Virus record (IMG/VR): IMGVR_UViG_3300023181_000038
Location: 1-50,488 of that record
DNA: 50,488 nt
Source of the DNA: a virus
Taxonomy: Duplodnaviria > Caudoviricetes
Strand: one strand, 5' to 3'
Shown here: positions 7,194 through 17,824 of the stretch, piece by piece
Layout: each line of letters starts with the position of its first letter
How positions within the stretch are numbered: the first letter of the stretch is position 1
Position numbers and translations under genes: made by a program
The notes under the pieces: model-generated
The model's input: the letters and a program-made list of their open reading frames with translations, nothing else
What the model was told of the DNA's origin: nothing
The model's database searches: none

Positions 7194-7417
7194 ATGGCTG
7201 GGTTGTTTTGCATTTGACCTTCACGATTGATGCAATACTTGGCAAATTCATCAGTAGAAATGCCTTCCTTTTGCAGTTTTCCGACGACATTCTTTGCGGC
7301 AAATCGAAATGCTTCGTCTGCCTTTTGAAACTCAACAGCGGCTTTGTATTGGTACTGGAAGAGCATTTCTATTTTCTCTTCTCTCGTTAGTTCTTTGTCA
7401 GTCTTTCCAGAAGTCAT
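7190..7417 (-). CDS. Hypothetical protein
   Basis: Overlaps the end of the helicase gene. Confidence 0.65.
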   Translation of the reverse strand: MTSGKTDKELTREEKIEMLFQYQYKAAVEFQKADEAFRFAAKNVVGKLQKEGISTDEFAKYCINREGQMQNNPAI

Positions 7418-9269
7418 CGGGTAGTTTTATGGGTACGTGAATGGTAGATTTTACAGCAATGTTTTCAGGCGTTCGCTGGTAGAAGTCGATACCTCTCTTT
7501 CTTAGAGCGCATTCCATAGGGTCATTGTGCAGCGTTTCAAACCTTCGCGTTGCCCTCACGTAACGTAGTTCAACATACCCCGGCTTACCCACCGTCTTTT
7601 GCCGCCTGATTTTCTTTGAGTGCAATTCGCAAAGCGGATCGTCTGGATTAGTGGCAATGAATGGGCGATGATACACAAGCAAATTGTCTAGCTTATTCTG
7701 CCACATCGCTCCGTCTGCAAGGTCGTAACGGTCAGGGCAGGGGTAATTCCCTGTCGAATCCTTACCTGATGGCGCTTTTGGGTGAGCAAGGATAAAGAAC
7801 ATGATTTGATGAGCCTGAGCAAAACGGGCAAAAGAGCTTAGCACTTTCTCCAAATACTTATCGGAACGCGCGCCATAATCGTTATCCATCTGGTTAAATG
7901 GATCAATGCAAACTCCGTCTACCTTTTCTTTCACAATCATCTCCAAAAAGCGCTCATTCACATAATCAGGCGTTGGGCTGTCATTTTGAGGATAGAGGTA
8001 AAAAATGTGCTTTGCTATCCAATCGTAAGCCCTATCGTAAATTTCGGTTGATGGCCTGTTGGGGTTTGTTGGCGTGCAGTCGGCACCCAATAGCATTTCA
8101 ACAAAATCATGATAATATTCTGCTGCGGGGTTATCCTCCGGCGCGAAAGAGCAAAACTTTTCTCCGTACAGGATACAGCGCATGAGCATGTACCACTTTA
8201 TCAGGGCGCTTTTTCCTACGTTGCCATATCCGGTTAGCCCTGACAATTCCCCCCGTTTCGCCTTCCAAACCTTATCAATGAAAGCGTCATCAATTCCGGA
8301 AATGGAATCGTACCCGTTAGAGTGGATCTTCAAAGCATCTGATTTGACTTCATGCGCGTAAATAACATCCCTCCCTGGTTCATCTTCGTTGAACTCTGGA
8401 ATGTCTTTGTAGTTGACTTTGTTCCGGCTTTTTATTTCGACAAGTTGATCTTTTTCAAAGCATACCGTCCCAAATGCGGGGCCGTTCTTTTTGTATGCGC
8501 TGCGAACACTGCTCATCATTTCCTTTGCGGTGAAATCAGCCGCGGTAGGGAATTCAATGCTTATCAACTCTCCCGCGCTGCGTGATTCGATCCCGTACCG
8601 GCAGCAAGCCCCCGCCAACGCAAAAATGAAATTGTTACGGCTGCCTGTTGAAAATGCGCCGCGCTTATTGCTGATCCATTTTAACAGCCGCGCAAATACT
8701 TCGCTATCCGAATCCGTTGCACTTACTCGCTCCGCTCTTTGTTCCGTGGTAAGCACTGCATTGTAAACCTGCGCATTGGGGTTTATGTAGATATGCGGAT
8801 CGTAAGATTCAAAGCAAAGCCTTTCTTCGTTTGCGCCAGAAGGGTCAGCGTCGGGGAAAGTCTCTCGCAGGGCTGCAAAGTGTTCCCGGTGTTTACTCCC
8901 GTCTGCTACGCGGATAAGCGCCTTTAAGCCATGCCCTGATGGAGATTGCCAGCAAGCATAGGTAAAGGGGAAATCACGCATAGCTGCCGCTGTTTCTCCA
9001 ACTTCCGGCAAATGGTCAAAGTCCAACACCAAAAAGCCTGAGTGCGTTGTGAGCGCCTTATCCCCCCTCTGTGCAAAGGTTCCTGCAAAGGCAACCGCCG
9101 GCAAAGTCTTTTTCAGTTGGTCAATGGTTGCTTTGTCCGTTGTTGCGCGGATCTGGTCAACGATTGATGCGCTCTTCCCGTCCTTAATCCGCGCCAATGC
9201 TTTGCTAACCGAAATGTGGTGCGGGTTCTTAGTGAAAATAGATTCGTAAATCGTTATATTATTTTCCAT
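7398..9269 (-). CDS. Primase-helicase: BT4734/VirE-N domain, PriCT-like domain, SF4 (DnaB/Twinkle-like) helicase
   Basis: LKKTLPAV.F.G.F...HSGFLVLDFDH...SPSGHGLK; GSRNNFIF; Walker A GYGNVGKS; IDPFN; LAHP. Confidence 0.9.
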   Translation of the reverse strand: MENNITIYESIFTKNPHHISVSKALARIKDGKSASIVDQIRATTDKATIDQLKKTLPAVAFAGTFAQRGDKALTTHSGFLVLDFDHLPEVGETAAAMRDFPFTYACWQSPSGHGLKALIRVADGSKHREHFAALRETFPDADPSGANEERLCFESYDPHIYINPNAQVYNAVLTTEQRAERVSATDSDSEVFARLLKWISNKRGAFSTGSRNNFIFALAGACCRYGIESRSAGELISIEFPTAADFTAKEMMSSVRSAYKKNGPAFGTVCFEKDQLVEIKSRNKVNYKDIPEFNEDEPGRDVIYAHEVKSDALKIHSNGYDSISGIDDAFIDKVWKAKRGELSGLTGYGNVGKSALIKWYMLMRCILYGEKFCSFAPEDNPAAEYYHDFVEMLLGADCTPTNPNRPSTEIYDRAYDWIAKHIFYLYPQNDSPTPDYVNERFLEMIVKEKVDGVCIDPFNQMDNDYGARSDKYLEKVLSSFARFAQAHQIMFFILAHPKAPSGKDSTGNYPCPDRYDLADGAMWQNKLDNLLVYHRPFIATNPDDPLCELHSKKIRRQKTVGKPGYVELRYVRATRRFETLHNDPMECALRKRGIDFYQRTPENIAVKSTIHVPIKLPDDFWKD

Positions 9270-10035
9270 TCTGTTTTGATTGATAGTCTAGCCATTCGGC
9301 TACTGTGGAGAAATCTTTTTCTGTCATTACGTGGGTAGATGTTCGGCGTGTAGGTTTTGACGCCTCTTTCTTCGATTCCCTTTCTGCGGCCCCTTGAGCC
9401 GTTTTGATAAACCCAACCGCCCACGCGGTCCATTTCATTATTGGCGAACCGTCTCGATAAAGCCATGCAGTCTCTTCATTTTTTAGAAAGAACGGCTCTG
9501 CTAAATCCTCGCGCCCATGAGTTGAAAAAAATACAAGCACTTGTTCCATTGTGGGGGCGTAAGATGGGCGGAAGATCTTTTCAATTTCTTTCGCGCCCGC
9601 GCTTTCTCTCTCTTCTTCTTTCTCTTCTTCTAATTCTTTACATTCTTGTTTGTAGGAACCCTCCGTGCCCGCTCCGCGCCCTTTGCCTGCCCCCACCGTG
9701 CCCTTTGCCTGCCCCGTTTCTTGATAACTCTCATATTTACAGACAGTTAACCGTGTCGTTACAGTTACCGATTCTGTCTCAATCATGCCGTCACTTTTTA
9801 ATAGTTCAAAAAAGTTTCTTACGACTTTTACGGAGCATCGCCAGCTTTCTGCCCACCCCTGTAAGGACTTCACACATTGTCCTCTTTTGCATAAGACTAA
9901 CGTGCCCTTTAGAAGAACCTTGCGATCTTCATGGTTGGCCTCCATAAGGATGTCTACCCACCACTGAAAACGTTGGGGGTCTTTCCATAGCCAATGATCT
10001 TTTATCTGCCGGTGCAGTTTAATCCAACCGGCCAT
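9259..10035 (-). CDS. Replication initiator (lambda O/DnaD-like)
   Basis: MAGWIKLHRQI..HWLW...KRGQ...L...W; low-complexity linker with repeats; C-terminal PTMEQV...F...W. Confidence 0.85.
   Translation of the reverse strand: MAGWIKLHRQIKDHWLWKDPQRFQWWVDILMEANHEDRKVLLKGTLVLCKRGQCVKSLQGWAESWRCSVKVVRNFFELLKSDGMIETESVTVTTRLTVCKYESYQETGQAKGTVGAGKGRGAGTEGSYKQECKELEEEKEEERESAGAKEIEKIFRPSYAPTMEQVLVFFSTHGREDLAEPFFLKNEETAWLYRDGSPIMKWTAWAVGFIKTAQGAAERESKKEASKPTRRTSTHVMTEKDFSTVAEWLDYQSKQNGK
9661..9715. repeat. Iteron array, probable replication origin inside the initiator gene
   Basis: Five 11-bp units each containing YGCCC; 20-bp near-perfect repeats at 9674 and 9696. Confidence 0.7.
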
Positions 10036-10478
10036 TATGAACAAAAAATATTATCCCTGTTAGGGTGCGAAAGAACAGTTGAATCAGACAAGGCTTTTGT
10101 CACCTCGATTGGATTGTTGCCATGTGCTATGCCCAACATAGGCTCAACCAAGTTCCTTTCGGAGATAGCCCTGCACTTATGGATAAACGCATATCCGTCA
10201 AGAGCGTTCTTCATTTGATTGCACCAACGGCAAGCGGGTGCCAAATTTGATGGCATGTTCTTGCCTCCTGACGCCCGGCTATAAAAATGGTCAAGTTGCC
10301 ATGTGGAAGATTTTAGGTGGTCGTTGCAGTAAGCGCAGTGAAAATTGAAGCGCTCTAAGACCATCAATACGTCATGAGTAGTGATGTTATCTTCAAATCT
10401 CTTATTTGCGGTTACGGCCTTCGCAGTGCATTTGTAGACCCTTGCCATTGTGGTCTGATGCGGCGTGTAAAGTATCAT
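10035..10478 (-). CDS. HNH endonuclease
   Basis: CAYC...LDHFYSRASGGKN..SNLAPACRWCNQMK. Confidence 0.92.
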   Translation of the reverse strand: MILYTPHQTTMARVYKCTAKAVTANKRFEDNITTHDVLMVLERFNFHCAYCNDHLKSSTWQLDHFYSRASGGKNMPSNLAPACRWCNQMKNALDGYAFIHKCRAISERNLVEPMLGIAHGNNPIEVTKALSDSTVLSHPNRDNIFCS

Positions 10479-10479
10479 A

Positions 10480-10605
10480 AAATAGAGAAATCCTATGAGG
10501 CTTGCCCGGCAAAGCGCACCCCATAGGATTTAGTCATGAGTTAAATAAACGCCGGTTGCCGCCAGCAATTAACCCTACAATAAGTTTCTCCGCTATTGCG
10601 GAATA
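10480..10605 (-). ncRNA. Structured leader RNA with loop-loop complementarity (putative attenuator)
   Basis: Hairpins at 10589-10602, 10538-10575 (loop CGGCAA) and 10488-10531 (13-bp stem, loop contains TTGCCG). Confidence 0.6.
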
Positions 10606-10623
10606 GACTGCAAATTACGGTGA

Positions 10624-10839
10624 TTAATCCGCTTTGTCAACTTTCTTGCTACCGAAGGTAATTTCTAGTGCAGCAAAAATGCAAACAAGAAAGGCAATAA
10701 ATGAAATGACGCCAAAGAACCCTCTTTCTTCTCCGCCCCAATCGCGCGGATTTAGGCTAACGGTTTGTATTGAGCAAGCCATCCACAGAACGAGAATAAC
10801 AGAGAAATAAACGGCAACGCATTTTATAATGATCTTCAT
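10624..10839 (-). CDS. Two-TM membrane protein
   Basis: Two hydrophobic segments flanking SLNPRDW. Confidence 0.75.
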   Translation of the reverse strand: MKIIIKCVAVYFSVILVLWMACSIQTVSLNPRDWGGEERGFFGVISFIAFLVCIFAALEITFGSKKVDKAD

Positions 10840-11111
10840 GATTTAGGTGGAATTATTTTAGTAACGGTTCGTGTTTTACCGATCTGTTCGGTGACTATCT
10901 GCGCGCATGGCATTCTGAATACTATGCTTAACGCCTCCATAATCTGCAATAACTCCGGCACAGTAGGCCAATGCTTACCGGCCTCTATCATATGCATTCT
11001 GTGGCTTGTGACGCCAATGTAGGCGGCTAATGTATTCTGCCGGAGATTCAATGTCTTGCGCATGGATTTGATCTGATCGCCGATGTAGGCGAGTTGGTCG
11101 GATTGGGTCAT
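10836..11111 (-). CDS. XRE-family HTH regulator
   Basis: IGDQIKSMRKTLNLRQNTLAAYIGVT...IEAGKHWP. Confidence 0.9.
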   Translation of the reverse strand: MTQSDQLAYIGDQIKSMRKTLNLRQNTLAAYIGVTSHRMHMIEAGKHWPTVPELLQIMEALSIVFRMPCAQIVTEQIGKTRTVTKIIPPKS

Positions 11112-16409: not shown

Positions 16410-16919
16410 TTACAACAAAACATATCCGGCCTTATCAACCTTGCCAGCGTTGCGCAATTCAAGCAACTGACGCCATGTTTTACCGAATGCTTTTTCAAGA
16501 TGCGGGTAATCGCGGATTGTAGAAAATTTGCCGCCCCACTTCCACCCTGCATCCTCAAATACTTTTACTACTTCGCGCCAATCGGCTGCGCCGTCACCAT
16601 CGAAATCTTTGGCAATATCCCAGCTTACGGTTATCCCGTCAATAAGTAGGCAAAAGTCTATTGCGAGGCCATAGTTATGGAATGAAGATCCGGCATTTGC
16701 ATTGGTAACCTTCGCCCCCGGTTTCGTTCGCCCCTGCGCGTATAATGCGGCTTGCTCTGCGAATGTCCGGTAACCCTGCACTATTCTTATGGACGCGCGG
16801 CCTTTTAGCGCCTTAGACGCCTCTATATAAAGGCGCTTCGCTTCCTCTCTCAACTTTGGATGAAGCAACGCGATCCTATTGAGCGAAATAGCGTCTAATT
16901 CTGTTACGGTCTGTGCCAT
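16410..16919 (-). CDS. Endolysin, M15 (L-Ala-D-Glu) peptidase
   Basis: GYRTFAEQAALYAQGR...SFHNYGLAIDF...WGG...DYPHLE. Confidence 0.95.
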   Translation of the reverse strand: MAQTVTELDAISLNRIALLHPKLREEAKRLYIEASKALKGRASIRIVQGYRTFAEQAALYAQGRTKPGAKVTNANAGSSFHNYGLAIDFCLLIDGITVSWDIAKDFDGDGAADWREVVKVFEDAGWKWGGKFSTIRDYPHLEKAFGKTWRQLLELRNAGKVDKAGYVLL

Positions 16920-17198: not shown

Positions 17199-17277
17199 GG
17201 ATGTGAAGGTACAAAAACAGCGGGCAAATGGTTTTTGTTTAAGGCTGACCTGCTCAAAGGAAGTCCCCCGCTATTTT

Positions 17278-17310
17278 AATCACCACGCTATCTGTGGTAG
17301 CGTGGTGATT
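17278..17310. repeat. Perfect 13-bp inverted repeat
   Basis: AATCACCACGCTA-N7-TAGCGTGGTGATT. Confidence 0.9.
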
Positions 17311-17380
17311 GTTGGGAAGGCTCAAAAGTAATCTACAAATACCGCAAGGTCACTTTCGGGGCAAAAAAAATAAATTAAGG

Positions 17381-17411
17381 CTTGTTTGTTTGGGATTGTT
17401 ACCTATTTTTG
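17381..17411 (+). promoter_or_regulatory. Bacteroidota sigma-A-type promoter
   Basis: TTG at 17382, 19-bp spacer, TATTTTTG at 17404-17411. Confidence 0.75.
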
Positions 17412-17414
17412 CTG

Positions 17415-17775
17415 TATCAAATCCGAAGGACATGGGTGCAACTATGGCTTTTTCTTCGGGTTTAGGAATAGATGTTTGCCCTTAGTGGTATACCTTTCCC
17501 CTAAGCCCTCGCCGCACCCGAGGGCTTTTTCTTTGCCCCTACTCTAACGAAATGATGCGCCATAGATACGCATGGAGAGGAGTAAAAATCTGCGGGTGCT
17601 GCATTGTGCCAAAATGCTTTTAAATGTTGAAGATGGGTTTTCTATAGCTTGCTACCCGTCAACAGCCGAAACGAACGACGAAACTCATTGTACTGCCAGT
17701 CTGAAAAGGTGAGCGAAAATCTGCTAATTCTCTAAGGGGGTTGGGGGATTAGCTTGCTTTCGCTTACCTACAACC
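17415..17775 (+). ncRNA. Candidate structured ncRNA or long leader
   Basis: At least six stems (17419-17463, 17503-17527, 17540-17584, 17601-17617, 17625-17664, 17707-17769); no ORF of 60 aa or more. Confidence 0.65.
17503..17534 (+). terminator. Intrinsic terminator/attenuator within the leader
   Basis: AAGCCCTCG-CCGCACC-CGAGGGCTT followed by TTTCTTT. Confidence 0.75.
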
Positions 17776-17824
17776 TTCTAAAATCTATTGTTTGCCAATC
17801 ACAAATAATTTCGCGCACAATCAA

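Follow-up and report, generated by a model that had tools for sequence, protein, structure and literature searches.

The virus record IMGVR_UViG_3300023181_000038 (Duplodnaviria; Caudoviricetes) carries on its minus strand a real member of an uncatalogued leader design of Bacteroidota phages: a kissing-loop terminator leader, in which the loop of a 5' hairpin is the exact complement of the apex of a terminator-like hairpin. The window, as used here, is the whole stretch of DNA that was analysed, a complete virus record of 50,488 bases. The loop-loop pairing is conserved as a design and covaries across homologous loci. The leader is probably a real, uncatalogued control element. We assign a probability of roughly 0.6 to the reading that it is a promoter-proximal attenuator of this design, in which read-through into the HNH endonuclease, initiator and primase-helicase genes is set by the kiss.

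The minus strand of the gap that holds the leader folds as three hairpins, termed h0, H1 and T. The features of the leader, from 5' to 3' on that strand, are as follows.

10611..10618, minus strand: candidate Bacteroidota-type -7 box GTAATTTG, read from the sequence and tentative.
10588..10603, minus strand: h0, an extra 5' hairpin (UUCCGC-AAUA-GCGGAG) found by folding, missing from the relatives in alignment A3 and unmentioned in the initial annotation.
10538..10575, minus strand: H1, an interrupted hairpin with outer stem GGGUUAA (10575-10569)/UUAACUC (10544-10538) and inner stem GCUGG (10566-10562)/CCGGC (10555-10551).
10556..10561, minus strand: H1 loop CGGCAA, the 5' kissing word, with an unpaired probability of 0.82-1.0.
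10488..10531, minus strand: T, a terminator-like hairpin seen by folding and by the covariance model R1 (below), with a 13-14 bp basal stem (10531-10518/10501-10488), an internal loop and a small apical stem.
10507..10512, minus strand: T apex word UUGCCG, the 3' kissing word, which complements the H1 loop exactly (duplex energy -7.6 kcal/mol).
10479..10490, minus strand: U-rich tract UUUCUCUAUUUU, which reaches the start codon and aligns to the UUUUUAUUUUUAUGAU 3' end of R1.
10474..10588, minus strand: full-length match to R1 with 31.5 bits; its E-value, of rough calibration, is 5.9e-5 for the window and 6.2e-4 for 536 kb.

Reading of the sequence and folding confirmed the two minus-strand hairpins and the exact loop complement CGGCAA/UUGCCG on which the initial annotation was built, together with the G-U pairs that it had reported in the stems. 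These are G10574.U10539, U10564.G10553, G10521.U10498 and U10518.G10501, and because of these four pairs the element is far more stable on the minus strand (-35.9 kcal/mol) than on the plus strand (-21.8 kcal/mol). The segment 10470-10620 folds at -47.6 kcal/mol (z=-2.69), and 1 of 200 shuffles was equally good. The T stem is inverted repeat I7 (13 nucleotides (nt), 92%); the genome contains just 17 inverted repeats of that size. T is a predicted intrinsic terminator, with a stem of 14 bp and 6 U in the next 10 nt, the U run being interrupted; the last base of its stem is 10488, and the HNH gene begins with the AUG at 10478. A terminator consensus scan did not list T, the loop of which exceeds 8 nt. 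The inner part of H1 at 10550-10567 on the minus strand (UGCUGG-CGGCAA-CCGGCG, then UUUAUUUAAC) was itself listed as terminator-like by the consensus scan. The candidate box GTAATTTG fits TAnnTTTG, the accepted Bacteroides promoter -7 consensus, at 6 of 8 positions, with TTTG kept and the first two positions off; GTTG is located 19 nt upstream.

Membership of the window leader in the design is carried by its nearest design relatives, the loci L017 (CUGCCA/UGGCAG), L023 (CGGCCA/UGGCCG), L124 (UGGCCG/CGGCCA) and L148 (CCGCCA/UGGCGG). Like the window, all four have a 5-bp hairpin with a 6-nt loop, and their terminator consists of a 12-bp stem, a small apical stem and a 6-nt loop. The window pair CGGCAA/UUGCCG fits this series and adds one more compensatory position. 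The covariance model R1 was constructed from these four sequences alone, with the window left out and with no pseudoknot information. Its match to the leader is the only one in the 50,488 bases on both strands, and the other terminators of the window do not score. In the R1 alignment, CGGCAA and UUGCCG fall in both kissing-loop columns and form six of six Watson-Crick pairs, while the inner stem of H1 is aligned to the first hairpin of the model. The gene order of the window (leader, HNH, initiator, primase-helicase) recurs in L017 and L148.

The relatives had to be reached through protein. No nucleotide homologue of the leader, near or distant, was found in the phage collection, and none by exact pattern in viral contigs; with blastn and nhmmer, the best E-value of the leader among 80 related loci was 0.074, and no leader sequence is shared. 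This made a classical covariation analysis with the window in the alignment impossible. The closest initiator proteins are just 47-58% identical. Relatives were gathered solely via an initiator-protein alignment, a search from a single protein having yielded no loci; 80 of 194 viral-contig loci, 80 of 362 metagenome-contig loci and 51 of 51 genome loci were covered. A search with the pattern CCCATTGAGGGGATAGG returned no loci beyond two already known.

Across these relatives, a promoter box comes first, then a 5' hairpin or 5' word, and then a terminator hairpin whose apex is the Watson-Crick complement of that word; the initiator gene follows, either at once or with one gene in between. The kissing words are 6-12 nt long and lie 18-56 nt apart, and the start codon follows 10-35 nt past the terminator. 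At least 22 distinct kissing words occur across the relatives. The largest consistent picture comes from group 1 (21 loci, 15 distinct sequences), which has a gap of about 125 nt before the initiator. This gap contains a Bacteroides-type -7 box (TATATTTG), two hairpins of 9-12 bp and 5 bp, in that order, and a 9-11 bp terminator with a U6 run, about 15 nt before the ATG. The first hairpin and the terminator have complementary loops, the words of which change together: GGUGAGAG/CUCUCACC, GUGGAAG/CUUCCAC, GGUAGGAG/CUCCUACC and GUCGGAG/CUCCGAC. One gene lies between leader and initiator in L017, L018, L020, L049 and L124.

Several variants of the layout were observed. In some lineages the 5' word is single-stranded and the terminator is nested and double. 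Such nested double terminators are present in L010, L009, L004, L064, L069 and L133, in which a terminator hairpin and its U run are nested within a long outer stem that has a U run too. The apex of the inner hairpin carries the kissing word, which is complementary to an unpaired stretch close to the 5' end. In the variant of L057 and L061, where the gap before the initiator is about 282 and 182 nt, respectively, the complement of the word in the terminator loop (UUUGCGGAUU) is AAUCCGCAAA, located past the terminator and just ahead of the ATG. In L109, about 35 nt separate the beginning of the kissing-loop leader from a transfer RNA (tRNA) gene upstream of it, at 153-225 on the plus strand (61.2 bits).

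Covariation of the loops was counted in two alignments, A4 and A6 alone, as the whole-family MAFFT alignments A2 and A3 were inconsistent with the structure. A4 consists of four sequences, L017, L023, L124 and L148. Its kissing helix has six pairs; 24 of 24 cells are paired and three pairs have changed on both sides. For the whole A4 structure, none of 500 shuffles matched the observed value, and sliding the partners lowered pairing from 96% to 31-52%. A6 consists of 10 of the 15 group 1 sequences; the five type-b sequences, whose shorter loop was put out of register by MAFFT, were omitted, and their pairing GUGGAAG/CUUCCAC is seen alignment-free. Its kissing helix has seven pairs, with 70 of 70 cells paired and two two-sided changes (C-G/G-C/A-U and G-C/A-U). 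In both alignments the stems of the two hairpins also covary, with many G.U pairs on the sense strand. Over 39 elements, the sense fold was more stable than the antisense fold in 27.

The pairing is also specific to the position before the initiator. Every terminator-like hairpin in all loci was scanned on both strands, and its apex was compared with the upstream 100 nt. A Watson-Crick complement of at least 7 nt was present for 25 of the 38 non-identical hairpins located 0-60 nt before the initiator ATG, versus 33 of 440 other hairpins; a shuffle p of 0.01 or less was reached by 17 of 38 and 9 of 440, respectively. Several matches filed as "elsewhere" or "60-700 nt upstream" are the five leaders with one intervening gene named above. 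When 28 distinct apex regions, unselected for pairing, were mixed and matched, at least 7 nt of complement was found in 15 of 28 cognate combinations versus 33 of 756 non-cognate ones, and some of these 33 are relatives with the same word. For 27 of 38 leaders, versus 22 of 421 other terminators, the box TAnnTTTG is present at 35-125 nt upstream of the terminator; the 5' word begins a median of 16 nt past it. The loop-loop covariation across homologues to which the initial annotation had looked is therefore seen in A4, in A6, in the mix-and-match comparison and in the series of words.

A third pairing site was considered and rejected for this family. Pairing of the apex word with a downstream site near the start codon (at least 7 nt) was found in 3 of 38 leaders versus 29 of 415 other terminators, which is no enrichment; it is present in L101 and in L057/L061 only. 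In the window, UGGCAAGG at 10441-10448 on the minus strand starts at codon 11 of the HNH gene, the second AUG in frame, and could pair with the terminator apex CUUUGCCG through six Watson-Crick and two G.U pairs. This pairing is probably due to chance, because GGCAA is common and the downstream third site is not enriched in the relatives. A further match at 10630-10636 on the minus strand is at chance level, and that segment would occur only in read-through transcripts from upstream.

The leader would operate as follows in the attenuator reading. Transcription would start a few bases past the promoter box and would mostly end at T. Pairing of the H1 loop with the nascent apex of T would hinder completion of the terminator and permit read-through with no ligand needed. 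This is the sign of action that we infer as the most likely one; in the alternative sign, the kiss would stabilise T. The genes behind the leader would rely on read-through, as there is no room for another promoter downstream.

The genes that surround the leader, most of the genes of the window being on the minus strand, are given below.

Upstream of the leader, minus strand: genes of a Sak4-like protein, an exonuclease and a DNA methyltransferase, in that order from 5' to 3'.
10836-11111, minus strand: gene of a helix-turn-helix (HTH) protein, upstream of the 71-amino-acid open reading frame (ORF).
10624-10839, minus strand: ORF of 71 amino acids, directly upstream of the gap.
Between this ORF and the HNH gene, minus strand: gap of 145 nt that holds the leader.
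10035..10478, minus strand: HNH endonuclease gene, 147 amino acids, first after the leader (Pfam HNH, 1e-09; PHROG HNH/endonuclease VII families).
9259..10044, minus strand: replication initiator/DnaD-like helicase loader gene (phrog_2514, 8.4e-32; 117 homologues).
7398..9269, minus strand: primase-helicase gene (Pfam BT4734-like_N and PriCT_1; PHROG DNA primase/helicase).

With this order of HNH, initiator and primase-helicase, the leader heads a replication-initiator module. The homologues of the initiator are labelled as Bacteroidota (Paludibacter, Flavobacterium, Mariniphaga and Bacteroidales metagenome-assembled genomes); the host of the virus is therefore probably a member of the Bacteroidota. 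Control of replication genes, as claimed in the initial annotation, holds in that the leader stands at the head of the replication module, and is qualified by the HNH gene that directly follows the leader in the window and in two relatives, L017 and L148. That same position is the ground for a different explanation, in which the leader mainly limits expression of a selfish HNH gene and is not a replication regulator. A precedent exists in phage T4, where the free-standing HNH homing-endonuclease gene mobE has a weak intrinsic terminator at its 5' end that stops 30-50% of transcripts (PMC2790892). However, the initiator is located directly behind the leader, without an HNH gene, in L023 and in all of group 1. 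Among 10 intervening genes tested, only two are clear HNH genes (L017 and L148); L130 has a sub-threshold HNH, L133 has KilA-N, and six have no family. Moreover, the HNH and initiator ORFs of the window, as listed, overlap by 10 nt, which leaves no space for a separate control element. A leader that mainly limits the HNH gene is rather unlikely. In L023 and group 1 nothing separates leader and initiator, and in the window, L017 and L148 an HNH gene intervenes; the leader thus marks the head of the replication module, and HNH genes seem to have settled behind it. The design is not tied to replication genes alone.

Several observations weigh against the attenuator reading. Among the relatives, 13 of the 38 leaders fall below 7 nt in the crude scan. 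The advantage of the sense over the antisense fold is modest at 27 of 39, in a set that includes related sequences. The kissing helices are nearly purely Watson-Crick, and allowing G.U extends them by 12 positions in total compared with 27 for A.C; the kiss itself is thus without a strand-specific RNA signature. The extra variability of the words is confined to one subgroup, and in subgroup D the words are invariant. In the window, the generic test for a 6-nt complement within the upstream 100 nt gives p=0.145, and GGCAA/TTGCC is over-represented in the genome (243 versus 160.8 expected; none of 100 shuffles reached 243). The word UUGCCG is partly tied up in the local palindrome UUGCC-G-GGCAA, in which the four central bases are unpaired at a probability of 1.0 and the flanking bases at 0.51 and 0.39. 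The promoter box of the window is imperfect, its U tract is interrupted, and hairpin h0 and the outer H1 stem are lacking in the relatives. Finally, transcription start, termination and regulation are all matters that we infer.

Judged on the window alone, the loop match is suggestive, weak evidence. T could be an ordinary operon-boundary terminator and the loop match of the window a coincidence or a decayed remnant, even if the kiss works in the relatives; the generic p value, the frequency of GGCAA, the partial self-pairing of UUGCCG and the atypical leader all agree with this. However, the chance that the 18-nt apex of T holds the complement of the 6-nt H1 loop is about 0.9-1.0%, R1 places both loops in the kissing columns with their six Watson-Crick pairs, and leaders of this gene family are enriched in such pairing. 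This explanation is accordingly considered unlikely. A scan of the whole window for similar units revealed no further convincing one.

A terminated leader might, by way of speculation, also act in trans on nascent leaders with the same word, which is conceivable because the kissing words differ between close relatives. The hypervariable kissing word could then be an address code, with the abundant terminated leader serving as a sense-strand "own antisense" that would bind nascent leaders of matching code and alter termination ahead of the replication genes. Phages would thereby gain RNA-based copy-number sensing and kin-specific interference with co-infecting relatives, in effect incompatibility or immunity that needs no antisense promoter or protein; this extension is doubtful. 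In a stronger form, the unit would be a stand-alone small RNA gene, composed of a promoter, an RNA of about 120 nt and a terminator, that acts chiefly in trans, on other copies or on co-infecting relatives with the same word, as an immunity or incompatibility device and has little effect in cis. The layout fits such a gene, and subgroup A has three words, with the kiss columns the most variable of the leader (0.309 versus 0.107-0.200). Short RNAs from promoter-proximal phage terminators are known regulators (PMC7547250). On the other side, the start codon 10-35 nt past the terminator leaves no room for a promoter and implies dependence on read-through; the words of subgroup D do not vary, only the leader itself was found as a target, and the third downstream site is not enriched. 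A small RNA gene of this type is quite improbable. That the words are DNA-level inverted repeats, either half-sites for a phage protein (initiator or repressor) or an origin structure, is highly unlikely: the purely Watson-Crick kiss with no G.U preference, the nearby initiator gene and the HTH gene upstream at 10836-11111 would suit such repeats, but both words are located in loops of hairpins whose stems covary and have G.U pairs solely on the sense strand, a promoter box and a U tract flank the unit, and words of 6-12 nt spaced 18-56 nt apart are ill-suited to a fixed dimer.

The initial annotation had also drawn support for a possibly undescribed RNA class from a second site in the same genome, at 17419-17534, taken as within-genome covariation.

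17404..17535, plus strand: -7 box TATTTTTG (17404-17411), hairpin 17420-17462 with loop GUGCAA, and terminator 17503-17527 with a U run; similar in layout, with membership in the design unsupported.

This site is on the strand opposite to the first leader. Its loop-only complementarity is 4 nt (GUGC/GCAC), or 6 nt when stem bases are counted, with p=0.2 in the generic test; its fold has z=-1.49 and its R1 score is 4.9 bits. The second site may be a distant cousin of the leader design; it is no evidence for the first leader, and the argument from within-genome covariation was abandoned. The remainder of the class proposal was retained: a structured design, a covarying kiss, and no match in Rfam. 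No Rfam family matched at gathering score in the whole window, with just two chance-level matches around the site, and in 20 related loci nothing but one tRNA was found. Searches of the literature, supplementary files not covered, found no description of the design.

The surroundings of the second site have features of their own. It is contained in a gene-free divergent region of 600 nt (17199-17791) between minus-strand lysis genes and a small plus-strand cassette. The plus strand of 17199-17800 is strongly structured (-196.9 kcal/mol, z=-4.43 on 20 shuffles); the region includes a perfect 13-bp inverted repeat at 17278-17310, with up to 16 pairs when folded, and, as part of a longer stem, a 13-bp hairpin at 17723-17753. 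About 70 nt past the second-site terminator, CGGGUGC at 17593-17599 on the plus strand complements the terminator loop and 3' arm (GCACCCG); it repeats the tip word of the 5' hairpin of the second site and lies within an ORF of 46 amino acids (17572-17712). A gene of an M15-peptidase endolysin (minus strand, 16410-16919), with a clean intrinsic terminator behind it at 16386-16367, is located between this divergent region and the early genes.

If the attenuator reading is true, many Bacteroidota phages gate their replication genes and selfish nucleases with a ligand-free kissing-loop attenuator whose word is free to change, and a widespread class of structured RNA would be added to the catalogues. 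The leaders would provide natural orthogonal kissing pairs on terminators, useful for the effects of loop contacts on termination, a question open for the guanidine-IV riboswitch. Early gene control in Bacteroidota phages would become more accessible, and RNA-coded self-recognition between related phages would become testable. We know of no described regulatory circuit for this phage group.

Several known systems share parts of this arrangement. In the rep leaders of plasmids pT181 and pIP501, use of a terminator is decided by loop-loop RNA contacts with an antisense RNA. There, the partner is a countertranscript from the opposite strand and a pre-emptor pairs with the 5' arm of the terminator, whereas here the partner is on the same strand and the apex loop is contacted. 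A scan for promoter-like sites on the opposite strand in 10479-10623, which used the sigma-70 consensus only, found none. In the repZ/repA leaders of IncI-alpha/IncB plasmids, a hairpin loop pairs with bases adjoining the rep start codon; translation is controlled, and the pairing is blocked by an antisense RNA. The L057/L061 variant resembles this pseudoknot in that its terminator-loop word complements bases just before the ATG, while in the window the partner is upstream, in a hairpin loop.

Among phages, the P4 CI RNA (seqB with seqA/seqC) and the c4 RNA of P1 and P7 bring complementary words of the same strand together in one leader transcript. Their pairing governs premature termination (P4) or translation (P1/P7) ahead of essential genes, and the words differ between heteroimmune relatives. 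The CI and c4 RNAs are processed, act in trans and have two target sites, whereas in the present design one 5' word meets the terminator apex itself and the third site is not enriched. The C4/P4 CI family, probably one of those in Rfam, gave no Rfam match in the window or in the 20 related loci. For lambda nut and HK022 put, no Rfam family reached threshold in the window; the boxA/boxB and put motifs themselves were not searched for. In lambdoid late operons, read-through is caused by protein Q and there is no kissing pair. The late PR'-tR' units of these phages (6S RNA/StxS) have a constitutive promoter with a terminator immediately behind it, give a short RNA, and leave the downstream genes in need of read-through (PMC7547250); the layout predicted for the window leader is similar. 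The terminator of T4 mobE, unlike that of the window leader, is inside the coding region; mobE is without its own promoter, and that report describes no loop-loop partner (PMC2790892).

The guanidine-IV (mepA motif) riboswitch family had no gathering-score match in the window, no match at E<=10 in 10350-10750, and none in the 20 related loci. For that riboswitch, two reports propose that a 5' hairpin loop kisses the terminator-containing hairpin just ahead of the gene to be controlled and prevents the full terminator, which leads to read-through (PMC7736828; PMC11611296). The leader design is like it in that the loop of a 5' hairpin matches the terminator hairpin, and the sign of action favoured here is the one proposed for the riboswitch. 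Guanidine-IV stands before exporter genes, whereas the genes behind the window leader are those of the HNH endonuclease, the initiator and the primase-helicase. The loops of guanidine-IV are conserved and guanidine is needed; in the design reported here the words are 6-12 nt long, fully complementary and lineage-specific, and since they differ in every lineage there is no conserved ligand pocket.

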